Assembly (NCBI GenBank): GCA_048213135.1
Contig: PS015136.1
Coordinates: forward strand, 80,190 to 122,979
DNA: 42,790 nt
Source of the DNA: Reclinomonas americana ATCC 50394
Lineage: Eukaryota
Reading direction: 5' to 3'
Under the pieces are notes generated by a model that did not search any database, was not told the DNA's origin, and saw only the letters and a list, made by a program, of their open reading frames with translations. Position 1 is the stretch's first letter, and every line of letters starts with the position of its first letter. The position numbers and the translations under genes are program-made. Below, piece after piece: positions 10,258 through 28,115 of the stretch.

Positions 10258-11196
10258 TTCTCCTTCACCGACGCGACAGCAGCAACACAGAGAGCAGGTA
10301 GTGCAGGGCGTGCACGGCGAGGAGTCGGGAGTAGCGAAAGGCGTACTTGGTCGCCAGCACTAGATCCAGGAAGCCGCCCGAGGAGAGCACGAGGTCGCGG
10401 GTTTGCAAGGAGTCGGTGTCGCCTGGGGGGAAAGTGGAAGGTGAGAGGGGAAAGGGAGAGAAGGGGAAAGGAGGGAGGGAGAGGGCAAGGGGGAAGGTTT
10501 AGAGGGCGAGAGAAGCGAGAGCCTCTCTCTTTCTTTCTCTCTCTCTCTCTCTTACCTTCCTCCAACAAGGCGTGCTCGGAGACTCGTCGCCAGGCGCGCT
10601 TCTGAGCTGCAGCAAAGCGTCGGAAGCGATGTGGATCGTAAAAGGCCACTGATTGCAAAGCCTACAGAGAACATGTGAGAGAGTGAGAGAGAAGAGAGAG
10701 AGAGAGGGAGAGAGAGAGGAGAGAGAGGGAAGAAGAAGAAGAAGAAGACAGAGGGAGAGAGGAGAGAGAGAGAGAGAAAGAGCAAGGGTCCAGGAAGAGA
10801 GAGAAAATGCATGAGTAAACGTCGTCTTTCCTCTCCAAAAAAAAGCACGCGCATTCTCTCACGCCATGCACCTGATGAATCGGGTGCACAAGGCTCATCC
10901 ACAAGCCACACTGGCGCTCTTCTGTGAGGGGGAAAGCGTCAAAATGCAAGTGTCGTCCTCGTCCCACAACACTCTGACGCAATTGCAACAAACAACGAAG
11001 CGCAGAAGGTAAAAGAGCACACACAAAGAGAGAGAGGCAGAGTGAGAGAGAGAGAAGATGCGCGGAGAAGATTGCAATTTCAGTGTGGAAGAAGAAGAAG
11101 AAGAACATGCAGAGAGAGCTGCAGACTCTCACAGAACCTGCAATCTTGGTGCCACATTGACTGGGCACTCACTCACTCTCTCACTTTCTCACTCAG

Positions 11197-13364
11197 ATGA
11201 GTCGACGCAAATGGGATGTTCCTGGTGACGCGCCTCCTCCACCTCCGCCTCCTCCACCTGACGACGACTACCCCACATCTTCATCGTACCACCACTCGCA
11301 CTCGCACTCCTCAGCAGCAGCCGAGGCATTGCGTCGCGCGCAAGAGGTCGCTGCGCAGCTCAAGGCGCGGCATGCGGGCGCCTATGATGGACAGCCTCCG
11401 CCTCCGCCTCCTGATGATGACTATGGTCAGGAGAAGGCTGGTGGAGATGATGATGGAGACGGGGAGATCACCGACCGAGAGATTGAGATCAATGAGAGTC
11501 GGCATCGTGGGTTTCTGACGCGTGGGCAGACGCAGAAGGAGGTGAGGAGCAGGCGAAGGGAGGGTGGGGAAGGGATGGGTGAATGGGGAAGGGCGAGAAG
11601 GCGCGAGAATGCACTCTAAAAGAGAAGAAAGAAGAAGAATAAGAACAAGAAGAACAGAGCGAGAGAGAGACGGCGCGTTATGATGGACAGAGTCCTCCTC
11701 CTCCTCCTCCTCCTCCTCTTCCTCCTCCTCCTCCCGATGGAGAAGGGTGGTGGAGGCGGTGATGATGCCGATGAAGACATGAAGATCGATGAGTGGGGCT
11801 TGTGACACAAAGGCAGACGTAGCAGGAAGTGTGAATGCGGGAAAGAGATTGCAGAATGAAGCAACAGCACACGCTCCGTCTGAAGCATGCAGCGACTGAT
11901 ATGTAGGAGCATAACTCATTGTCATCGCTCCCTTCATCCGCATTCTTCCCCTTCCTTGCTCACCTCCCCTTCCCCTCTTCGCAGATCGAGGCCGACTCTG
12001 GCGCCGCGGTCATCACTCGCGGAATCTACCAGGACCCGAATGGACCGCCGACCGGCGAGCGACCGCTCTACTTGAAGGTCACTGGCAAGCGATCGCAGGT
12101 CGACAAGGCTGTGGCGCTCATCGAGAACGTGATGCAATTCGGCCGTCTGCACCTGTACAACGGGCCTGGTCAGCGCAACTTTGGCTTCTCGGAAAAGGTG
12201 ATGGTCGGCATCGACTCGAAGGACGATCGCTTTCCGGTCGTGGGCAAGATTGTCGGTCCCAAGGGCGCCTTCCTCAAGCACATTCAGAACGAGAGCGGCG
12301 CCAAGGTGTTCCTGAAGGGCCGCGGCTCCAACTTCCAGGAGACGTTTGACGAGCCCATGTATGTGGACATTCAGGCGCCCACCGATGTGTCGCTGGCGAC
12401 GGCCAAGAAGCTGACCGAGAATCTGCTGGCCACGGTCCGAAAGCAGTACGAGGAGCATGTGTGAGTCCGCGTGGGCGAGCGATTAGAAGAGTGATTATCC
12501 GCTCTCTTATTCTTAGCGCCACCTTTTACAGGAACTACCGCAGTGGAGGTCGTCGCGGTGGCCCCGGTGGCCCCGGTGGTTCCGGAACCAGCTCCAATGC
12601 CACCCCGCTCGCAGGAGCCGTGCCTCCGCCACCCCCACCGCCACCGCCGGTTCCCGGATACGGCGGCTATCCCGGTTATCCGCCAGCGTTGCGTCTTTGT
12701 TTGTTCCCACTCCTGCTCGGGCGAATCATCGCATCTCATTTTTCGCACGTCGCAGTTATCCGGGCTACTATCCGGGCTATGCGCCGCCGCCACCACCGCC
12801 GCCAGCGATGGCACCGGGAATGGCGCCGGGAGAGGTGGCTCCGGGCGATACGCCGCCAGGGCTCGGGCCTGCGGTGCCGGCGGCAGCACCGGCGGCAGTG
12901 CCAGGGTACCCAGCGTACTATCCGGGTTACGAGCAGTATTATGCGCAGTGCGTTTGTGGGGAAGGAGGGAAAGGAGAGGGAGGGTGGGAGAGATGTAGTC
13001 TCTTTGCTGCTGTTGCATCTTGTCACTCTGTGGCACAGTGCATGTGCGGTGTGTGTTGGTGGTCGGAGAAAGATGTAGAAGGAGGGTTCGAGAGATATGT
13101 GTCTCTAAGTGCTTGTGGAAAGAGAGAGGAAGTCAGCGGGAGAGGGAGGGATTATGGGTGAGAGTGAGAGAGAGAGGGGAGAAATGGTGTAGGGGGACAG
13201 CGACAAGAGAGATCTACCTGTCGCCATTGACCCTGTGTATGTGCTTGTGTCTCTGACTGCCTGTGAATAGAGAGGCGAGAGAGTGAGAGGGAGGGAGACA
13301 AGGTTTAGAAGGAGGGGTACGAGAGATGTCAGCAGTTTCGTGCGCTGCGCTTTTGTCGTTCCTC

Positions 13365-13446
<82 letters not shown>

Positions 13447-15619
13447 GTGTGTGTGTGTGNNNNNNNNNNNNNNNNNNNNTTGTGTGCTTGTGTGCTTGTG
13501 TCTCTTAGATCGAGAGAAAGGAGTTCAGTCGGAGAGTGGTGGTATGTGTGAGAGAGTGAAAGAGAGAGATAGGTACGAGAGATATCAACCGTTTCTTTCG
13601 ATGTGCTGTTGTCGTTGGTCCTCTGTGTTCGTTTTGTAGATGAGGAGGGCTGAGGGGAGAAGTGAGGCAAGGGGGATGTTGACCTTCTTGCTTTTTTGCT
13701 TTCATTATTGATCTTGTTGTGTGTGCGTGCACGGGAGTTGACCTTCTCCGTCTTGCTTTCCTCATTGATCGCTTTGTATTCGCCCACTCTGTGTACTTGT
13801 GCCTGTGCGTGCTTCGGGACACATACATACGCAGCGTGATCTTCCTCTTCTCATCCCCACGCTGCCCCTCCCGCTCACTTCTCCTCTCTGTTCTCTTTTT
13901 GCATCATCACCCTCCTCATTCCCTCCACCCTCCCCCTGTTCCGTCCTCTCCCTCTTCACCTTCTGTATTCCGGTTCCGTCATCCCCTTCCGTCTCCCTCC
14001 TGATAAGAGGCGTCGACCAAGCGTTGGAGCTCCCCCTTTCTCTTTCGCTGTCCGTCTTCTCTATCCGTACCTCTGTCTCTATTCTCACTCCGATTCCCAC
14101 CACCAGATACGCCGCCTACGCCGGATACCCGGGAGCAAGCGCCGCGGCTCCAGCACAGCAGGTAAATGGCGGTGATTGGCCAGCGTTAGTTGCACTCACT
14201 CGCGTTTGGGAAGGGGGGTGTGTTCACTGACTCTCCAGTTTGTATCAATGGGATCCAGTGGTCTTCCGTCTTGTTTCTCTTTCTGTGTCGGCGTTGTTGA
14301 GTTGACTCACCTGCTAGTGTGCGCATAGAGAAGATAGCGGGAAGCGGGAGTGTTGTTACTCATGAAGCAGCTGTTTTTTGTTTCTGTTTAATTGTTGATA
14401 CTCACGCCTGAGCTCTGTGTTTGCGTTGGTGGTATTGTGCCTTGTTCTCGTGTTGGTTGTCACTCACTGCGCCCTCTTATTCACTGGGTGTGCACAGATA
14501 GTGAGAGGAGTTAATAAGGACTGGTGTCTGCTGATGCTCTTTCCTATTTTTCTGACTCACCTAAAATTTGCACATGAGAGACAGCGCGGATTGGCGATTG
14601 TAGCGAGCTCTATATTTGTTGTTGATTGGTACTCACTGTACTGCCGTGTGTGTGTTTGCATTTGCGCGACAGGCATTGGTTTCGAAGTTGCACTGTGTGT
14701 TCCTCATTTGCTCACTCCTGTGTTTCCGCACCTTGATTGTCACGAGAGAGATACATTCCCCTGTTGATACTTACCCTTGCCTGCGCGTCGCTCTGAGTGT
14801 GACCTATCTTGTTATTACTCACCTCCGGCGTGTGTTTGTTAGTGCAAGCGAGTGAGGCAGTGCGGTTGTATTGAGACTTGTTTTGTGTGCTCTGTTGGAA
14901 CTCACCTCCGTATTCGTCGAGCGCATACATTCTTCGCGGGTGTGCTTGGTTCACTCACTGGTTCAACGCGCTTGCTGCTGCGGCCGTTGTCTTTTCGTCT
15001 GTTTATGCAGTCCTCTGCTCCGCCTGGTCTCGAAGACGCGCCTGGCCACAACGACCAGCCGCTGCAGTTCGCACCGGGTGCACAGCCAGAGGTGATGTGA
15101 CTCAGCGATGCAAGTCCAAGTATGTGCACGCCACTCACAGCTGCAATCCGTGTGCATGCAGAAGTCGGCGTCCAAGCGTAGCATTGACCAGATCTCGGAG
15201 GCGGGACAGCCAATGGGCCCGAGTCGTCCCACCGCCGAGGAGATGCAGCTGTCGTATGGTCGAGGTTGGGGTTTCGGACGCGATCTTTGGCTTCATATTC
15301 CTTCTTTCCTGCTAGCTGACCGCGACACACAGGAGCGGATGCTGACGCGCCGGCGTACAAGCGTGCGCGCGTCGACCATCACTCTGCGTCGCACCAGCAC
15401 CAGCAGCACCAGTCGTCGAATCCGCTCGCCAGTCTGCGCAGCTACTCGGGCGAGGAAGGCGACGATGGGGCGAATGGAGTTGCGTTTTTCTTGGGGGTTG
15501 CCAGGCGTTTGCGTATGTTGTCGTGAACTCACGAGTGTCGTCATTGGGGAAAGCAGCAGCAGCAGCAGCAGCAGGCGTCGTCTGGCAGCGGACTGCCCTT
15601 CTGGGCTCAGCGGCCGTGA
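11197..15619 (+). CDS. KHDC4: KH-domain RNA-binding/splicing factor KHDC4 (BLOM7/KIAA0907, plant RIK-like), multi-exon
   Basis: Motifs RRKWD, [78 protein letters not shown] and AKKLTENLLATVR; Pro/Tyr/Gly-rich tail; C-terminal PFW motif (GLPFWAQRP*, TGA 15617-15619). Confidence 0.88.
11672..11834 (+). pseudogene. Decayed duplicate of the 3' half of KHDC4 exon 1, inside intron 1
   Basis: Matches 11377-11545: TATGATGGACAG, CCT run, GGAGAAGGxTGGTGGAG, AGATCxATGAG, GGCAGACGxAGxAGGA-GTG. The exon's ACG CAG has become ACG TAG. Confidence 0.75.
13367..13459. repeat. (TG)n microsatellite in a KHDC4 intron
   Basis: Directly visible; runs into an N gap. Confidence 0.95.
14194..14958 (+). promoter_or_regulatory. 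Intronic array of ACTCAC motifs (putative splicing-regulatory element)
   Basis: Nine exact ACTCAC at 14194, 14305, 14400, 14462, 14555, 14631, 14817, 14900 and 14953, plus variants, in intron 14162-15010. Confidence 0.55.
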
Positions 15620-15983
15620 TGGGTCAAGGGGGTGGAGTTTCTTTCGAGGCGTGTGTGTGACTTGTCGTGGGTGGATGTGGTGGATGTGGTGAGAGAGTGA
15701 GCGAGAGGGAGACGAGTAAAGAGTGCACATGTGTGAGTGGGGAACGTGAGAGAGGCAGTCGCTTCGGTTGAACTTTGAAATCCTGGGAGAAGCTTCCGGA
15801 ATTCATTCACAACTCAAATTGTGGTGCTGATGCAGTTGACGATTAGCAATACGAAGAATTGTGGGTTCGACAAGTACTGCTGTCGCCTCCTTTGTGATTG
15901 GCAGACTGACCGTTATTCTGTTGCATGACATTATTTGATGTTGCCGTACTGTACGTCATCAGACGTCTAGACAGTTTCACTAT

Positions 15984-18900
15984 TCAATTGTCTTGTTGAT
16001 ACGAGCGAAAGTGCTGGCGGTACCTCGAGTCCAACGACCGCAAAGCGATAACGTGCGCATTTGGCGGCGTCAGAAGTCGCGGCCACTGTGGTAACAAAAG
16101 AGGCGGAAGAGAAGGTGGTGCACGAGCTTGCACCCTGTGAACCCGACGTTGAAGAAGCGCCGTTGCAGCAGGTATCAAGAAGGCGTGGTTTATCGAGGGT
16201 GTTGGAGGCATCATTGCCGGTGCATTTCCGTGCCCTGCGGTTGTTGGAGACTGCAACATCACACACACGCACGCGTACACATCAAAGTCGCAAGTCAACG
16301 ATGAGAATTCGATACGCGCTGAGCGCAGCAAACTTCCTGCATGCAATATTGTGCAGGTGCTCGAATACCCACTCACCAGACGCACAAAGGGATCCGGTAC
16401 TCGCGATTCCTGGTCGTCGAGGGAGCCGGGGTCGATATCGAGAAATCCAAACGGCTTGAGCGCAACGCTTGACGGCGAAGCGGCAACTTTCGCCGTAGAG
16501 AAATGCGAGTCTCGAAGATGTCGCTGCCTGCGCCTTCGCATAACAAGGCAGTACCAGGTGAGGAATAGTATCGCGGCTATCAGCACCACGCTGCCAACCA
16601 CAGTCCCGACAACCTGAAAGGAGACGAATTGGACTTTGTTAGCTAAAGACTCCATGGACGAGCTGTGTTCGTGCGCAGCGCAGACGTAAATGACAGAACG
16701 ATTCCGACAAGAGACGATGCAGGAGTAGCTGATGCATCGACGGCATCACTCGCTTGCGTTGCGCTGCTTCTGTCTGCTACCGACAGCAGACCACCGTTCA
16801 CTGGCACAGAGTTGGTGGTCGAAAAGTGAAGAATGCAGAGCAGGTATGAGCCGGCAGTCGGAACCCTTACTGTGGCGGAGGCCATCATGCCGTCCATGCT
16901 GACGCTTGTAATGGTGGCTAAAACACCAGTCGAAGCGGACGACGAGCAGCCGGCACCAGCCGATGCGACGAAAATTTGGTCCCTTACGTCAAGAAACGCG
17001 CCGGTGATGCTGACCACAGACAGACTGCCGGTCGTGACACTGGTTGGTGAAAACCCTGTTGTCGATTGAATCACTTCTACAGCGAAAGTTAGTGTCAACA
17101 AATCATGCACGTGCGCATGCGCAGCGGTTGCAATCAGCCCTATACGTGCCTTGGACCAGCAGAGTCCCGCCGAGCAGCGTCGCTGGTGTGCTCGCTCCAT
17201 ACTGGACGCAAACGTGGTATGAGCCGACGATACTTGCAGTCACCAAAACGGTCAAGCTGCTGCCGTCACTAGGGGCAGCTGTGCTTCCAATGACGAATCC
17301 TGGTGAAGATACAAAAGGACGTCAGTCACTACTTGTTGAGAAACGCAAGTAAAAGTTGGCACTTGCATGAAGCAAAATTATTGTCGACCTGCTGTACCTG
17401 GCGCACTGATCAATCCACAAGCAGTTCCCAACACAATAAAGACGGAGTGCGTTGACAACAGTCCAGAGCCGACCACTGACAAAACTGTCGCAGACTGGCC
17501 AATAATCAGAGTTGACGGTGTAAACGAAATTGCTTGCGGCAGCGCTCCCGCTGCGAAGGGCGGTATCTTTGAGTGCTACAGCAGCTTGAGAATCCAAGGA
17601 TCTAATGATCAACTGTACCTTCGGCGGTGAGGTAGCCACTTATGTTGATGACACCACTGGCGACGCTGGATGTAGAGAGGCACAATTTGTAACGCTGCAC
17701 GGCTTCCAGTCGTACCGAAAACTGCAGAAGAGTCCGAGTGTTCAACACCGAGAGAGTCGCTACACCGGCTACAGCTCCGCTAGTTGAATTACCGCCCGCC
17801 ACACACGGTGACGAGATATCCACAATCGACAGCACGTCACTGGCACGAAGACCAGTTCCAGTTACTGTAAGAAGGGTTCCGGGAATTCCCGTACCCATGG
17901 TGGTGGGGGAAAATGCAATCACAGTGGCGTCTGTTGAAAATGCGATCAGTATTAAGATCTTAATAAGCGCAACAATACACATATCATAAGGTCCGCCAAA
18001 GTGACACAACTTTCACCGAGAATAAATGTCTCGGTTAGTTCACCACCTGCTCCATCAGTCGCTCGCACTTTCAACTCCAAATTAGTGCCGACAAGGTCCG
18101 CGACCGCCGACTTGAGGACATATCCGGCGAGGCGGAACAGTCCGGCTGCCGCACCGCCGACAAGTGACAACGACACTGCCTGTGACACATTCGCATCAAC
18201 AGTCGAAAACGTCGCGACAGTGGCATCAAGGGCAAGGTGTGGCTGAAACAGAGTGTTGGATATGGTGATCGAGCTGGGCGCCACGTTGGCTGTGTCGTTT
18301 GCAATTGCAATACGCATTTAGTAGTGTGTTTTGAGGACATAAAAACTTACGATGTACATACCTTCTGCAATCGTGAGCGTTTGTGTCACCGACAGCGCTG
18401 GTGTGCCATTGTCTGTCGAACTGATGCTCGCGGTGATAGGACCAGTGACTCCGCTCGCAGTCAACGTCAACTGGTCACCATTGATAGCAAGAATACCCGG
18501 CGGAATGCTTAGAGCAATCGTATAAGTGAACGACTGTGCAGTATTGCCGTCCACTGTCGACAACGTTCCGATGACTGAATTTGCAACGCTGGGTGGCACA
18601 AACGTCAAAGCCGATAATGCGATGGCACTGGGCGCCAAGTTCACTGTTTGTCGAGTTGAACAAGCGAAGAGAATTAGGTGGTAACATATAACATCTCTGA
18701 CGTTCGAGCAACAGACGTAAATCTGTACCTTCCGTAATTAGGAACCGACTTGACACCGAGGCGCCAGCAGAGTCCACCGATCTCACAATCACTTCCAGTG
18801 GACTGCCACGCAATCCGCTGACCGCGCTCAGCAGCTGCGTGCCCGACACACTAAATTTGCTTCCGTCAGCTCCTCCCCCAATCGAGTACGTAAACGATTG

Positions 18901-21900
18901 GCAACAGTTGTCGTCCACGGTTGACAATGCGCCAATTGGAACGCCGACTCCAAGGGGTGGCGAGTACGTCTGAAGTGACAAACTCACCGCCGTTGGTTGC
19001 ACGTTTGCTACCGGTACCGTGTGAAATTAAACATGTCGTCAGCAATTTTGTAGCGGCTAGCCATACGCGAGTTGCTTCTCTCCGTAAACATACCTTCACT
19101 AAATGTGAATGTTGCAGACGCAATACCGCCCGCACCGTCGCTTACAGTAACAGTGACTTGTAAATTGTTGCCAGTGAGGTTCGCCGCCACAGTGCGAAGC
19201 TTCAAGTCCGCTCCTAGTGAAAAGAGGGAAGCATTCGCGCCACCCGTAATTGAATACGTCAGAGTCTGACCAATGTTTGCGTCCGTGGCACTGACAGTTC
19301 CGAGAACGGTATTCATGACACATGGTACGCGATATACGTTGTCAGCAAGCCCCGCGACAGCGTTGGTGAATGTGAGGTTCGCTGGCGTGGCATTGGCTAT
19401 TATGCGTGAGCACGATGAGTGAACACGCCAATAAGGCAGGTACTGTTGTTTTGCTCATTGCAGCAAACCTTCGGTGACTGTGAAGGATTTCTCGGTGAAG
19501 AGTCCACCGGAGTCCGTGCTGCGGACCACCATGGACAGCGTGCCAGACTGACTATTGATCTTAATGTTCAGCGACGAACCAACAATGGTGACAGAGTTGC
19601 TCGGCGAGCTAGATCGGATTGTGTAGACAAACGAGTCACTGGCGTTTGCGTCCGTGGTAGACAGCAGTCCGATCACAGTATTTGCAGTCACGGGCGGCAA
19701 ATACGTCGTTGCCGAGAGCGCAATGTCTGTTGGCGCTACATTGACTGCGCAGGCAGCTTGAGACTTAGTCGCCAAGATAGATTCAGTGCACAGAACCACG
19801 CGCAACAGATGTCCGTACCCTCTGTCAGCATGAATGTAGTCAATGCGCCCGAGCCCTGATTGTTGCCAACCTGCACAGTCACCGACCGCGTGGGCCCCGT
19901 GACGCCTGCAGACGATCGAACTACAAGCTTGTTGCCCTGCATGGCAAAGAGGGCTCCGTCGAATCCAGACGACACTCTGAAATACGCCGTTGCAGGGTCG
20001 CATGCTGACAGGGGAATACTGACTGGAGTTGCGATACTCGGTGGAAATGACCAGCGCACTTGGACGAAGTCAACGCCCGTTTGCTCCTGTACACATTCAC
20101 AACACGATGCGAGTACGAGTGGATACAATGTAAATGCGTGACTCGAGCGCAGAATCACACAGTCGACCGACCTTGTGCCGAACTTGGAGGAGAATAACTT
20201 GTCCAGCGGTGAAGCTGAATGAGCTGGACTGTTGCGAGGGGTACTTGCTAAAGTTGCCAACAGTTGTGGAGGAATTCGGCGGGACACCGGCAACTTGCAC
20301 CAAGTCATTCGAGTCGGATGTTGTGCTCAAGAATAAAGCAGTCTCCTCGTCCCCAGCCACCCAGAACTGTTGAAGAGCAAGTGAACTCCCAATGCAGGCT
20401 TATCTTGTCAGGAAAAAGACGCAACAACGTATGTGTTCGTCGCCGGAATTGTAACGTATGCTGTCAACTGGGAAGCATAGTTGTCTGGGCACGATTGTGA
20501 TTGAGTTTTCGAGCTCACAGCACTTCAGGTGACGGTGTACGTACCTCCATCATTCGTCAGGAATTCGAACGGATTAGAAGACGAGAGAAGAGCTAGATTG
20601 CTTGTTGACGTACTGAGCGGCACAGACGCAAAGTCGGCACTTGCAATGTTCGGACCGTAAAGAGTTTCCCATCTTTCACGCAGCACACCCTTCGCAGTGG
20701 TGGGCGAACGAAGAGAGTTACCACTGTATGCATAAGAGACCTGGCAGGTCATTCATCGATGTCAGTTCAGCAGGTACAGATCATCTACATGAAAATTTCC
20801 TTCCATGTTTCAAACACACCGTGCCTATTAGTGACGGCGCGATGGCGCCAGGAATAAACGTCGAACTGCTGAGAGCCACGCCGCTGAATAGATTAACCTA
20901 CAGTTTTCCAAGTGCGTGTCAGCGACGCGCCTCCAATTGAATGAGCGCATGTAGCGCTGCGCAGTGCTGAGTATTTGTCGTGCCACTCACCGACTGGGAG
21001 ACGCTGAAAGCCAATCCGTTGGAATCTGTTACTTCGATAGTGATGGGGAATGTCCTCGCCGAAGGAGTGGCGGTTGCAATCAGTTGGTTTCCACTGACAA
21101 TGATCGGCTGGCCAGAGTCTGATAACAATTTATACGTGTACGACTCGCAGCAGTTGTCATCGCGAGCCTGGATTTCCGAGATGACGAATGGATACGATGA
21201 TGCTGGGACTGGAAAGTCGCGATTCAGCAGGCGAACATTCCAGCCCTCAACAGGAGCTGCGAACAAGCACATCGAAACTCTGAGTAGGAAATCGACAAAA
21301 TCGACGCAAGCAGACGTCGACACTATAACCGAGCTCACTTTCTGAAAATGTGTACGACACTGAAGTGAGTGTGCCACTGAGATCGTCACCCTCGACAGTC
21401 ACCTCGAGGGTGGGATTCATCGTCATAGGGTCACCTCGTAATCCACCAAGCTGATTCGCTTGAAGCTTGTTACCCGCAACAAGGAACTTGGCCTGCAGGA
21501 ATCGCACTGTTGAACAGCCAAGTTCCCTAGTGCAACACGGGCAGAAGAGCACACACCGCATGCATTCCACCAGTAATTTTCCACAGAACGACGCCGACCA
21601 GACACTGTGAAGCTGGAATAGTGGTAATAGCGTTGCTGCCGTACTGCCATCCCAAGCTGTCGTTTGGAGAGAGACATTAATTTCAACAGTGAACGATCAG
21701 AGTCAACACAATGACGGGAGTTCACTTGGTTTCTTTTCGAGCCTCGGTTAAAGCAAGACCCGAGCGAGAGAGACAAAAACTTCCAATAGTGAAGATAATG
21801 CAAAAGCAGATAACGTAGAAGCCAAAACGACCGTAGTCGCCGTGACCTGTATTGCCAATGGCCGCACGTAGCACACCACCATCGAGGNNNNNNNNNNNNN

Positions 21901-24900
21901 NNNNNNNNNNNNNNNNNNNNNNNNNNNNNNNNNNNNNNNNNNNNNNNNNNNNNNNNNNNNNNNNNNNNNNNNNNNNNNNNNNNNNNNNNNNNNNNNNNNN
22001 NNNNNNNNNNNNNNNNNNNNNNNNNNNNNNNNNNNNNNNNNNNNNNNNNNNNNNNNNNNNNNNNNNNNNNNNNNNNNNNNNNNNNNNNNNNNNNNNNNNN
22101 NNNNNNNNNNNNNNNNNNNNNNNNNNNNNNNNNNNNNNNNNNNNNNNNNNNNNNNNNNNNNNNNNNNNNNNNNNNNNNNNNNNNNNNNNNNNNNNNNNNN
22201 NNNNNNNNNNNNNNNNNNNNNNNNNNNNNNNNNNNNNNNNNNNNNNNNNNNNNNNNNNNNNNNNNNNNNNNNNNNNNNNNNNNNNNNNNNNNNNNNNNNN
22301 NNNNNNNNNNNNNNNNNNNNNNNNNNNNNNNNNNNNNNNNNNNNNNNNNNNNNNNNNNNNNNNNNNNNNNNNNNNNNNNNNNNNNNNNNNNNNNNNNNNN
22401 NNNNNNNNNNNNNNNNNNNNNNNNNNNNNNNNNNNNNNNNNNNNNNNNNNNNNNNNNNNNNNNNNNNNNNNNNNNNNNNNNNNNNNNNNNNNNNNNNNNN
22501 NNNNAAAACGCAGGGAGGAGAGAGGAGAGAGAATGGAGATTCACGATCCAGCGCTTAATTCCGGAAGCAATGCTCTCATGCAGGCGAACATGCTCCAGAT
22601 AATGACGGTGCCACCACGGGTGCCGCGCCACCCTCCGTCGTCTCAAGCAATCGACAAGAGACAGACCCCGCATTCAGAAGCGAAGGTCAAGCGCTGAACC
22701 GCAAACCCACATCCCTCGCAACCACCACACAAGCGAACCAAGAGATGACANNNNNNNNNNNNNNNNNNNNGTTTGGGTGGATGCGAAGGAGCTGCCTCTC
22801 TACCTCGTCTTTAATTCTCCATCGTGTTTCTCTTTCTTCTCTATTGAGCTTCCTGCATGTGTGTGTGCGAGGTGCCTCTGCAACATCTGCGTCTTTCTTT
22901 TGATCGAGTTTCCGCTGTGTTGTATGTGTTAAGGGGAAGGGTTAATGCGTAAGAGTGAGACGGGTAGTTTGCGCTATGTGGTGGGAGAGTCTGTGTTATG
23001 ACTTGTGACAACTTTGCGATATTTCTTATTTGTATTTCGCTATTTCTTGCCTTTGCTGTGCCACTTCGTTTGTTGGCGCTTGTCTGCTGTCANNNNNNNN
23101 NNNNNNNNNNNNNNNNNNNNNNNNNNNNNNNNNNNNNNNNNNNNNGGCCGGGTTGCACCACACAGCCATTCCTCCGGACTCCTCCCAACACCACCACTCC
23201 ACTTCCGACAGTGCCACCAATTGCAACCAACACGTGCAACAATTGCAAGCAGTACAAGTAACGGTCGACGACGCAAAGAAAGAGAAAAACGGCAGTGTTG
23301 ACTCAAGACGTTCACAAACCGGGTGGGAGGGAGGGCTCAACAGGAAAGAAAGTGAAAAACAAGAGGAGTGTGTAAGACTCCGATCGTATTTTCACTTTAT
23401 GAAACCATGATATTCCAACAGTGGAAATCTGGATTNNNNNNNNNNNNNNNNNNNNNNNNNNNNNNNNNNNNNNNNNNNNNNNNNNNNNNNNNNNNNNNNN
23501 NNNNNNNNNNNNNNNNNNNNNNNNNNNNNNNNNNNNNNNNNNNNNNNNNNNNNNNNNNNNNNNNNNNNNNNNNNNNNNNNNNNNNNNNNNNNNNNNNNNN
23601 NNNNNNNNNNNNNNNNNNNNNNNNNNNNNNNNNNNNNNNNNNNNNNNNNNNNNNNNNNNNNNNNNNNNNNNNNNNNNNNNNNNNNNNNNNNNNNNNNNNN
23701 NNNNNNNNNNNNNNNNNNNNNNNNNNNNNNNNNNNNNNNNNNNNNNNNNNNNNNNNNNNNNNNNNNNNNNNNNNNNNNNNNCAACAGTGAACGATCAGAG
23801 TCAACACAATGACGGGAAAGATCTGGAAACAACAAACAAAAGAAATTGATGACAAAAGCAGGAGTGTGAACATAAAAACAGTGAACACGAAGCACATACA
23901 CCACATGCACTATCCACTGTACATAAACCCGAATCACTACACAGACACGATTCAAGCCCACCCCCACTACACAGGCCACGCACGACACAAACAAACACAG
24001 AGTACGTCACTTAGCCATCACAAATGACACAGTCGTCTGGCCCATCGTCCACCGCCGTCGCCTGCTCGAGGGGACGAACACGCGAATAGACGGCGGCAAA
24101 CACCTCAGCCACAAGCCGCCCCGGTGGTGGCACATCATTTCTGATGTACAAACGATGAGTATCGTCAGACTTCCACCCAGCCACCGAGTTCAGCTGCGTA
24201 GCTTCTACACCAAGCGCGTTGGCGGCCGTAGCCCCACCGCACGTGGATGGGGTAGTATACGTACCCCGCTTGCCTCCAAGCTCCTCCTCACCACCCTCGT
24301 CGCTGGGTTCTTCGTCGTCTTCGGTGACGAACTCCACATCCTCCTTGGTCATGGCCTTGCGCGCCTGCACACGCTTGCCCCTGCCATAGTCATCTTGCTG
24401 ATCCAGCGGCGCTGAAAGGCCGTCGTAAAGCCTCTTGGACATGGATGATGTGGTTGACTGTTGTCTCTCTCAACAGGAAAGAAAGTGAAAACGGCGCTGA
24501 AAGGCCGTCGTAAAGCCTCTTGGACATGGATGATGTGGTTGACTGTTGTCTCTCTCAACAGGAAAGAAAGTGAAAAACAAGAGGAGTGTGTAAGACTCCG
24601 ATCGTATTTTCACTTTATGAAACCATGATATTCCAACAGTGGAAATCTGGATTATACTTTTCACATTGCTGATGTTGTCGACGCGCAGCGCGCGCACGCG
24701 CGTCGCTGCAATTCGTCTGCGTACCTTACATGAGCGGTTGCGCCACCAGGTCCACGCTATGTATGTAGCACCGCAGAGAATGAGCGTTCCCAAGAATGTG
24801 GTTGTGTGAAGATTGATACGCAGCGAAAGGGAGTGGGCAGTTACCTTGTGCAGCACTTGTACAAGGATCACTTGATTGATCACGAGAGAATATGTCGGAG

Positions 24901-25940
24901 ACGCCGTGGTAGGGACTGGGTTCCACCTGCTGCAACATCAACAAAGCATCGCATTCGCAAACTCCGCACTGTAACGTAACGAAGGGTTTCCATTGGCCAG
25001 CGCAGACACTACACTGACAACTTTGACAAGATCGGCTGCGTCGCCGGTGAGACTGATGTACAGGTCGCACGAGTCGGCACAAGTGATGTAGAACTGAGAA
25101 GAGATGTTGTGAGTAGGCAGCTGGCGCAGCGATGTGAGTACATGCATAAAGTGGGCAACGCACAGTGTACGAGTTGTCAGTGGGTATGGTGACGAATGTG
25201 GTGAGGCGAGTCGAAGAGTTACCTGCATGTACAGCGCACAAGTACGCACGCATGCGTAAAACCGCATGTGACTGTAAGTACCAGAACAGAGACGCCGAGC
25301 GCTACGACATGTTCACGTGCAATGTGACGCACTAGCTGTGGCCGAGTATGCAAATGACGTCGTCAATGGGAAGCAAGACGTCGCCGCCGTCGAAAAGCTG
25401 TTCAAGTGCGGTCGAAATTAGGGCTAAGTGGTGGATGCTCACATTTCGAAATGTATATGCCGACCCTATGCATGTGTGCCCCAGAGCGTAACTCAGCATT
25501 TGACACAGACGACCCAGGTTGACCAGTCCAGCGTTCCGCCAGGACTCCAGAGGTGGTAGCCGACACACTTGATCGACAACCCGTTACAGTTCGCGACAGC
25601 TGCGCAAGCGCTCTCGTGAGTCTGGGGTGCCATACATTCGACTCAAGGCTTGAGCGCACAGCCAGTCCGCAACAGTGGTGAGCGTGGACCGCACTGCAGA
25701 GTACGGCATGAACGACAATGCGGTTGTCGCTCCTGTTGCAAGTTCAATGAAATGATCAGAACATGCATATGCACAAGCAGCACGTACGCGTACGCGTGCT
25801 ACTGTTGCCCATTAAGCATCGCAAGTTAACGCACCTGCGCCTCTTCCAGTCAGCACGACTATGCATGTGCACATCGCGAAGGCCAGCGCAAGACATGTAC
25901 AAAGAGCGTCTGCAGCACGACTGCGCATGCGCATGCGCAT
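15984..25940 (-). CDS. Large type-I membrane adhesin-like protein: signal peptide, ~8 cadherin-like repeats (two interrupted by PA14 domains), 3 IPT/TIG-like domains, TM helix, cytoplasmic tail
   Basis: Signal-like exon (ATG ~25940, ...LCTCLALAFAMCTCIVVLTG). Repeats follow NxAPxxIxLS...IGxLSTxDxN...FTYxI...FxxxGxxL...VxxTDxGG, mostly one per exon. PA14 motifs GVLRERW, DNYASQLTAYVTIPATNTYVFWVAGDEETALFLST and FSKYPSQQS...LQVRHKEQTGVDFVQVRW. IPT-like FSPT...LTVTGTGL occurs three times. TM GTVVGSVVLIAAILFLTWYCLVM is followed by RRRR. The termini are less certain than the domains. Confidence 0.8.
21684..21719 (+). repeat. Element left-end repeat, copy 1 (36 bp, identical to 23782-23817)
   Basis: CAACAGTGAACGATCAGAGTCAACACAATGACGGGA occurs twice. 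Confidence 0.95.
23336..23435 (+). repeat. Element right-end repeat, copy 1 (100 bp, identical to 24554-24653)
   Basis: CTCAACAGGAAAGAAAGTG...TTCCAACAGTGGAAATCTGGATT occurs twice. Confidence 0.95.
24011..24442 (-). pseudogene. 143-aa ORF: acidic N-terminal segment fused to a tyrosine-recombinase C-terminal remnant
   Basis: YTTPSTCGGATAANALGVEATQLNSVAGWKSDDTHRLYIR resembles the YR motif (H-S-x-R)-xGGATAA...GV...GxWKSD...YIR. The HxxR is degenerate and the upstream catalytic Arg region is missing. Confidence 0.6.
24407..24576. repeat. Perfect 85-bp tandem duplication inside the element
   Basis: 24407-24491 equals 24492-24576; it duplicates the ORF start and part of the right-end repeat. Confidence 0.95.
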
Positions 25941-26401
25941 GGTGAAGAGCTCCACTTGCTGTTGGAGTCCGACGCACAGGCAAACACTGATAGCACTGCA
26001 GCGCGAACGAGTGCAGAAAAGTTCAGTGAGTTCGCGCATGCGCAGCGCAGAGCGCGCTCTGCAGACACGTGAAACAATTGGGCTGCGAACACACTCTGTG
26101 CACGCACGTTTGTGCTGTGGTGGGGCTTCAACTCCGCGCTCCAGCAGCTGACGAGGCAACGATCTCTCCAAGGAGTCGCACAACAGTGGGGGACGCAGTG
26201 CGAGCCGTTGCGATATTGATGATGTAAAAATTGTATCCGGTTTGTCGCCTGACGCAGCGCTGCTTGCAGGTGTGTACGCGTTGAATTCGCAGGAGTAGTT
26301 TTTACGCGGCAGCGGAGTCTCAAGCTCACACTGTGTGCCCTTGTGCATGATCTCCTGCTGGTCCTGTCCCACATGCATCTTCTGTCCTCTTCAATTCGCG
26401 A

Positions 26402-26859: not shown

Positions 26860-28115
26860 CCACTCTGCGTGTTTGGCTTGATGAGATCACGCGCTGCACG
26901 ACCATTGCCACCACCACCACCTCCCCGCGCAGACAAGACAGAGTGACGTCTCTCTCTCTCTCATTGTAGCGTCTTCTGCGACCACTCAACATGCATTCCT
27001 GCAGACGTGAGAGGTTCTTTCTTGACCACTATCCCTTGTGGATTGACTTTGCGCTCTTTGGCGTGATGGGAGCACGCGCAAGGCCGCCACCTCCACCACC
27101 TCCTCGCGCAGACGAGACAGATTGAGTTGTCTTCCTCTTGCATTACTCCTCCCGTATGATTCGGGCTCCTCCGTCGTCGTCGTCTTCTTCGTCGTCAGCT
27201 CTTCTTCTGCTTGCTGTAGTTGTTGTTCTTCTTCCTCTCCCTCACTCTTCTCTTTGGCCACGGTCGCGCGCAATGCCGCCACCACCACTACCACCTCGAG
27301 CAGACAAGACAGACTGACTTCCCTAGCATCCGACGTCTTCTGCATCCGCTCAACATGCATTCCTGCAGACGTGAGAGTTGTTCCTTTCTCTGCTCTCTTG
27401 GTCACTATCCCTTGTGGATTAACTTTGCGCTCTTTGGCGTCATGGGAGCACGCGCAAGGCCGCCACCTCCGTCTCCTCGCGCAGACAAGTCAGATTGACT
27501 TCCCTTGCTTCCCTCGTCTTCTGCATCCGCTCAACATGCATTCCTGCAGACGCGAGAGGTTCTTTCTTGATCTTCTCTCTACTTTCTTGGCCACTATCCC
27601 TGGTGGATTGACTTTCCGCTCTTTGGCGTGATGCGATCACTTGCAAGGCCGCCACCACCTCTGCCTCCTCGCGCAGACAAGATAGATTGACTTTCCACTC
27701 TGTTTCGTGCTTCCGTCGTCTTCTGTCTGCATCCACAGCCACTTATACCTCATCCTCTCTTGCTTCGTTTGCTCCTCTCCTCTCTCATGACCACCATCCT
27801 TGACATTGCACTGTTTCCACTCTGCGTGTTTGGCGTGATGTTATCGCGCGCTCCACGGCCACCACCACCTCGAGCAGACAAGACAGACTGACTTCCCTAG
27901 CATCCGACGTCTTCTGCATCCGCTCAACATGCATGCAGACGTGAGAGGTTCTTTCTTGTTCCTTTCTCTGCTCTCTTGGTCACTATCCCTTGTGGATTGA
28001 CTTTGCGCTCTTTGGCGTGATGGGAGCACGCGCAAGGCCGCCACCACCTCCGTCTACTCTCGCAGAAAAAAACAGATTGGCTTCCCTTGCTTCCCTCGTC
28101 TTCTGCATCCACTCT
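26860..28115. repeat. Degenerate tandem array, ~7 units of ~180-200 bp
   Basis: Marker GCAGACAAGACAGA-TGAC (with variants) near 26928, 27108, 27300, 27481, 27672, 27874 and 28062; CTCAACATGCAT at 26985, 27349, 27530 and 27923. Confidence 0.85.

Follow-up and report, generated by a model that had tools for sequence, protein, structure and literature searches.

In the order DIRS, the PAT-like retrotransposons (Pat1, Toc3, kangaroo) carry gag, a pol encoding reverse transcriptase (RT), RNase H and a methyltransferase-like domain, and a recombinase, together with split direct repeats in the order A1-B1A2-B2 (PMC4157794 and PMC3266345). Split repeats with a methyltransferase define PAT-like elements and those without it Ngaro, while ATT trinucleotide ends with no target duplication are known for the order. 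Ngaro elements of Cafeteria show the same repeat order, internally deleted variants and scattered solo AB repeats, the latter ascribed to recombination between repeats (PMC8547959). Likewise, SIRE of Trypanosoma cruzi, equal to the A2-B2 portion of VIPER, is a short A-spacer-B unit of a split-repeat element, with origin and mobility left open by its authors (PMC6681497). DIRS1-like elements also harbor an internal template for the end junction, between inverted repeats (PMC7192593, PMC3266345); the complementary DNA (cDNA) of DIRS-1 is antisense, single-stranded and mostly linear, its primer is unknown, and the end-restoration model for the order is described as largely untested (PMC7192593). 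Here we analyze a window, i.e. the whole stretch of 42,790 nucleotides (nt) from Reclinomonas americana ATCC 50394 (contig PS015136.1, positions 80,190 to 122,979), in which a short host intron holds, on the minus strand, what is almost certainly one internally deleted PAT-like tyrosine-recombinase retrotransposon that derives from a parent of ~6.7 kb, preserves its two ends and the B1A2 junction, and is flanked by no target duplication. Comparison with its relatives shows that a predicted G-quadruplex (G4) motif abuts the inner A2 edge in four families of these elements, with short copies breaking at the same edge; we surmise that this motif, folded in first-strand cDNA, probably stops DNA synthesis there.

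A first-pass annotation had read this locus as two tandem units, each consisting of a left end (L), an interior and a right end (R). On the minus strand, the window copy runs as A1, gag start fused to recombinase end, B1A2, spacer and B2, with its intron comprising the following features (ORF, open reading frame):

21681 to 21719, minus strand: B2 repeat (the first L), right element end; sibling copies begin at the same base.
21720 to 23335, minus strand: spacer between A2 and B2 (the former interior 1), ~0.91 kb of real sequence and three gaps, with 22771 to 23092 inverted relative to contig C4270.
23321 to 23335, plus strand: putative G-quadruplex of four GGG runs abutting the inner A2 edge, on the antisense strand, that of first-strand cDNA.
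23336 to 23433, minus strand: A2 repeat (the first R), from the identical R pair and the C4270 layout.
23434 to 23817, minus strand: B1 repeat, visible at 23782 to 23817; the gap 23436 to 23781 is one base in contigs C3136 and C4270.
23818 to 24242, minus strand: 3' end of the tyrosine recombinase ORF (stop 24011 to 24013) and the sequence behind it, by matches to siblings.
24242 to 24243, no strand: blunt internal-deletion junction, ~4.9 kb lost as added up from sibling coordinates.
24243 to 24553, minus strand: gag start (ATG at 24442) and leader, by sibling matches.
24407 to 24576, no strand: 85-nt tandem duplication that the C3138 and C316 copies lack, either real or an assembly artefact.
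24554 to 24651, minus strand: A1 repeat (the second R), left element end, from the identical R pair and sibling copies.
21657 to 24724, minus strand: host intron with the element, GT..AG, 97 nt when empty, with an open frame over the exon join in a gene model predicted by eye.

The repeats themselves are as first annotated: the L copies (21684-21719 and 23782-23817) are the same at 36/36 nt and the R copies (23336-23435 and 24554-24653) at 100/100 nt, with no exact repeat of 12 nt or longer common to the two interiors beyond the items noted here. Since the genome contains at least 35 matches to R and 31 to the L side, the worry that these ends might occur nowhere else falls away. The suspicion that the doubled layout was a scaffolding artefact is likewise ruled out, because contig C4270 displays the same L-spacer-R-L-recombinase order without gaps; its R-L joint is also present on C3136. 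What does not hold is the notion of two units with swapped cargo piled head-to-tail, as each interior is a constant portion of the same parent element: leftwards from 24242 the sequence matches C3136 and C4270, which run into the recombinase and RNase H ORFs, and rightwards from 24243 it matches C3138, carrying gag and RT. Nor does this deletion derivative recur at several sites, as a mobile non-autonomous family would: among 6 matches, the 24242/24243 fusion is found only at the present locus. The deletion has removed most of gag, all of pol and most of the recombinase, leaving gag and recombinase remnants in frame by chance, and the window copy is a dead-end derivative, an ordinary broken transposon. 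The 85-nt duplication (24407-24491 = 24492-24576) had been overlooked. With respect to the four window gaps (617, 20, 53 and 346 N), C4270 runs uninterrupted at these places and the window pieces adjoin exactly in its coordinates, save for a single base lost where R meets L; for this reason the gaps are most likely scaffolding, and they are probably nearly empty. Their summed length of 1036 is close to one spacer unit, and an extra unit may be hidden within them.

A side remark in the first-pass annotation, which likened the minus-strand order to the split direct repeats (A1-B1A2-B2) of tyrosine-recombinase retroelements, was correct, and the autonomous-type relatives that it called for exist, with sibling contigs encoding RT and tyrosine recombinase. 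Of the two likenesses it had proposed, PAT stands and Ngaro does not, because pol carries a methyltransferase-like domain: a Dam match lies behind RNase H in families 1 to 3 (E 1.2e-5, 5e-4 and 1.4e-3). Pfam also identified RT (E 6e-10) and RNase H (E 7e-6) on the sibling copies C3138 and C3136, both domains being lost from the window copy. A profile built from four last-ORF sequences matched Cre (E 5e-4), with the HxxR region and the tyrosine aligned, and Foldseek placed the recombinase model, of low confidence (predicted local distance difference test score 52), near Cre-family structures (E 1.5e-5); the parent is accordingly predicted to carry a tyrosine recombinase, with an RSLR motif, and not an integrase. 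Weighing against this assignment, the Dam match scores 25.4 bits against a Pfam cut-off of 28.1 and is below threshold in all three families, and Pfam gives no recombinase match for the last ORF. Family 2, complete on C5700, has the same layout (A ~105-111 nt, B 38 nt, spacer ~860 nt), with 42% recombinase identity to family 1.

Within the PAT-like class, the element matches the description of Toc3-like members in lacking a gag zinc knuckle and in having its recombinase oriented as pol; the CCHC pattern seen in Pat1-like elements is absent from three gag sequences, one of them partial. It differs from PAT-like elements by: 1) its short repeats (A ~100 nt, B ~39 nt) and 0.9-kb spacer; 2) a recombinase bearing RSLR that Pfam does not recognize; 3) the G4 at the A2 edge, which is absent from the PAT-like descriptions consulted. 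The inverted terminal repeats and internal complementary region (ICR) of DIRS1-like elements were not found, the repeats being direct and A and B only partly complementary. In a tree of 30 rows combining the host families with metagenomic loci, the host families formed their own clade, loosely beside metagenomic split-repeat loci (80/99, not starred). Scored near its length, the recombinase found no counterpart among 7662 candidates. A Helitron or Helentron was also considered; these are marked by an asymmetric inverted repeat plus hairpin and by a RepHel-encoding parent. This assignment was rejected, as the parent with the same ends encodes RT and recombinase; no separate RepHel search was made. 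Two features of the relatives were seen in passing. The recombinase frame is open for ~1400 codons, overlapping the entire pol ORF (L093:1998-6191, L094:126-4448). The family-1 pol is split by another insertion (L031:2857-3240 and L032:1-309, on C3136 and C3138, the middle unassembled) with ~17-nt terminal inverted repeats beginning CCCTGC and, by eye, an apparent 3-nt duplication.

The ends of the element agree with the order. The ATTA reported at both borders is not a target duplication: sibling copies put the ends at 21681 and 24651, and among 39 copies with both flanks readable a 4-nt duplication was found in none and a 3-nt duplication in one. The empty intron, given as 93 nt, comes to 97 nt with these ends, and intron length is no test for target duplication in any case. 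ATT is present at both ends of the window copy, and in family 1 a purine directly precedes the element in 15 of 20 cases and TT follows it as the next two bases in 5 of 9, in line with the ATT trinucleotide of the order. The right host flank has a single match in the assembly, namely itself, indicating that no empty allele is present there.

The feature common to all four families is an antisense-strand motif of four G runs, 15-18 nt long, whose end lies 0-2 nt short of A2, directly preceding a CTC start that the families have in common. Its loops differ, and three families have pyrimidines in them. The motif was first noticed in family 1 and then in family 2, while its presence in families 3 and 4 was predicted before inspection and then found. 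Against a background rate of 0.21 motifs per kb per strand, the family-1 copy (23321-23335) was the sole such motif in the family-1 stretches scanned, and family 2 had two further, looser motifs in gag.

Most genome matches to the element consist of B with a spacer piece of variable length, joined to A. We compiled these short copies with one locus per insertion (n=63 in four families: 21, 14, 20 and 8), setting aside full-size copies, same-flank duplicates, A-only and B-only loci, L174 and the diverged L118-L124, and scored their joins with a script that is conservative when a substitution falls near the edge. The A-side join was located from -9 to +10 of the inner A edge in 53/63 copies and from -3 to +4 in 39/63, whereas the B-side end was variable, with less than 150 nt retained in 50/62. 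The one or two bases between motif and A2 were retained in several copies, often just those in families 2 and 3. Beyond B, the copies continue along the spacer and not along the recombinase side, as evidenced by the recombinase side next to B being confined to full-size copies in family 1 and absent from all 28 family-2 loci and from the family-3 and family-4 loci inspected. In many, the A repeat is 100% identical to that of full-size copies.

Other loci were more irregular. Insertions of A without B, starting at or beside the inner A edge (L006, L015, L098, L102, L105, L153, L162), may be the shortest products or deletions running beyond B. In L176 (C10014), two family-4 pieces, one B-spacer and the other G4-A, point towards each other, reflecting a nested insertion or an inversion. 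A short family-1 copy (L052, C128:4345-4485) sits on the window's own contig, ~97 kb upstream of the element. Older copies (L016, L020, L022, L043) contain many tandem micro-duplications of 3-7 nt, a pattern that seems common in this genome, and L118-L124 hold a diverged family-2-like A repeat inside another repeated unit on many small contigs.

We propose, with a probability of roughly 60%, that a quadruplex in first-strand cDNA halts copying just past the end-junction template. Judging from the genomic copies, the motif would fold within the single-stranded antisense cDNA made from sense RNA; when this cDNA is copied over B1 and A2, the polymerase would halt at the fold, and the resulting strand, with a fixed end and a B-A junction, could bridge or rebuild both element ends, with the B1A2 joint serving as the presumed template of the recombination junction. 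Complete products would then be inserted by the recombinase at an ATT-like site, while abortive products, comprising the junction and a variable piece of spacer, would be closed and inserted as short B-A copies. Polymerase stops and the ends of G4 blocks lie within 3 nt of the motif in other systems (PMC4654259). The short copies differ from described units: unlike the solo AB repeats of Ngaro, they break at a fixed position on one side and at a variable one on the other, a combination not produced by plain recombination, and while SIRE is described as one defined unit, the B-side length here differs with each short copy. The R-L joint folds as single-stranded DNA (z -6.1), and in 4/4 families the best pairing partner of A is the B of the same family (z -4.2 to -6.6), a pairing that may simply be an inverted recombinase site. 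At the inner B edge (window 23810-23828; L093, L094, L092), all four families end in ACGGG(A/G) followed by purine-ATC on the recombinase side, perhaps a second strand-end signal.

In the DIRS1-like elements with inverted repeats, the same fold would halt copying at the end of the ICR. The nearest sequences found were metagenomic proteins with ~25-30% identity. By pol alignment, at least 455 of the 600 stretches examined were confirmed, 80 were kept, 61 extended at least 1100 nt beyond pol and a script could define the edge in 14; recombinase alignment confirmed none of 191 metagenomic stretches, and two weak loci on viral contigs were left unused. A C-run tract at the edge ranked within the top 5% of its own locus in 13 of the 14 scored loci, i.e. 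10/11 with inverted repeats (two of them near-identical) and 3/3 with split repeats, and by eye seven more inverted-repeat loci harbor it. In both architectures, the motif lies on the antisense strand just beyond the end-junction template, inverted repeats there differing from the split direct repeats here; the likeness to DIRS1-like elements derives from metagenomic loci. Two loci labelled split-repeat by hand, L232 and L248, were excluded from the split-repeat support, as that label is doubtful and the tree placed them among ICR loci. We would bet evenly on the broader claim that, in many elements of the order with either repeat type, a cDNA G-quadruplex serves as an inbuilt strong-stop, terminating synthesis on the junction template and so setting repeat length, and that the scattered short A-B copies stem from abortive products which the recombinase inserted and not from recombination.

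Several observations count against the proposed stop. The mechanism draws entirely on genomic copies. Some short copies (e.g. L008, L009, L104, L127, L128, L186) contain A1-side bases, and an extra step is therefore needed; in addition, short-read assembly favors short copies, so that the share with a short B side is inflated. Among the metagenomic relatives, L228 is the scored locus that missed, and by hand no tract is found at L242 and L255, split-repeat loci whose A2 edge is visible (split-repeat total 3/5), or at L216, L221 and L225 with direct repeats only, with L225, L242 and L255 forming one branch of the tree; furthermore, many of the tracts in metagenomes contain bulges or fall short of four full runs.

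Two other explanations are unlikely, to a similar degree. In the first, the tract would be a priming signal, with antisense DNA synthesis beginning right behind it, proceeding through A and B, jumping to B2 and often ending early; variants of this idea invoke a C-rich site on the RNA or a primer like a purine tract, which the family-2 tract resembles. Priming, too, would fix one end and leave the other variable, and B-side lengths form a smooth range from <10 to 800 nt that passes through the B edge. However, a strand templated by RNA should often pass from B1 into the recombinase side, which none of the short copies seen does; the loops contain pyrimidines and the tract lies on the strand opposite the ORFs; and a DIRS-1 marker between ICR and right long terminal repeat is reverse transcribed (PMC7192593), the main first strand therefore beginning further out in that element. 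Two other primers were tried and dropped: by eye, no TGG-led site for transfer RNA (tRNA) lies directly at the repeat edges, with no host tRNA compared, and an 11-nt complement (21766-21776 with 24546-24556) that might permit self-priming is AG-rich and is matched over 10 nt by host flank as well.

In the second, the short copies would have arisen after insertion, by G4-induced chromosomal deletions in solo A-spacer-B units, one break falling at the G4 3' edge and the other being variable and joined by microhomology; the short copies would therefore be uninformative on reverse transcription, and the function of the motif would be left open. G4 deletions in dog-1 C. elegans are known to leave breaks of just this kind (PMC4654259), and 0-6 nt overlaps at the joins, two loci in which A and host flank come after an intact G4 (L155, L176) and the A-only copies all fit, while the short-read bias weakens the case against chromosomal deletion. 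Nevertheless, we regard this origin as improbable, given that: 1) the worm deletions extend ~50-300 bp from the G4 (PMC4654259), whereas mostly ~750-950 bp would be needed here; 2) breaks would have to halt just inside the far end of the element, to which the variable break is tied, as judged by the 50/62 copies keeping <150 nt; 3) none of the short copies seen retains B1 behind A; 4) the many fully identical A repeats leave scant time for two decay steps. Less probable still is that the motif works at another level, in transcription or RNA packaging, with its position at the repeat edge being incidental; relatives without the tract would suit such a role, but it leaves unexplained both the breakpoints a few bases from the motif 3' edge in four families and the same position in two repeat architectures. 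The cargo-swapping cassettes with fixed ends of the first-pass annotation, to which the recurrence of L and R around pieces of differing length might have pointed, can be dismissed, as these pieces are nested in one parent, interior 2 is a gag and recombinase remnant, the tandem look is a normal layout seen again in family 2, and the gap-free C4270 copy and the complete family-2 element refute them.

The host gene, on the minus strand, is large with many exons (10662-21656 and 24725-26000) and spans the insertion. We take it, by eye and unconfirmed, to encode cadherin-like repeats and a PA14-like stretch; Pfam yielded no match in seven exon frames. Further along the window, 26974-28069 comprises a 142-nt unit in four degenerate copies.

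A literature search by title and start of abstract revealed no quadruplex, C-rich or strong-stop tract in the order DIRS, an earlier mention in founding papers or supplements being possible, and term look-ups in three papers found no such tract; the comparison also drew on PMC3783388, PMC2685390 and PMC9210276. The element is a new member of the PAT-like class; the conserved motif and the mapped breakpoints are the point worth testing, and the interest lies in the pattern among relatives and not in the window locus. How cDNA is started and finished in elements of this order is an open question, and a motif at a fixed place with mapped breakpoints allows a cheap and direct test, a tagged DIRS-1 assay being already in existence. 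If the proposed stop is true, these would be retroelements that use a quadruplex as a programmed replication signal, with one mechanism serving both repeat architectures; solo AB and SIRE-like units would be reinterpreted, and the motif would provide an annotation marker for the inner repeat edge.

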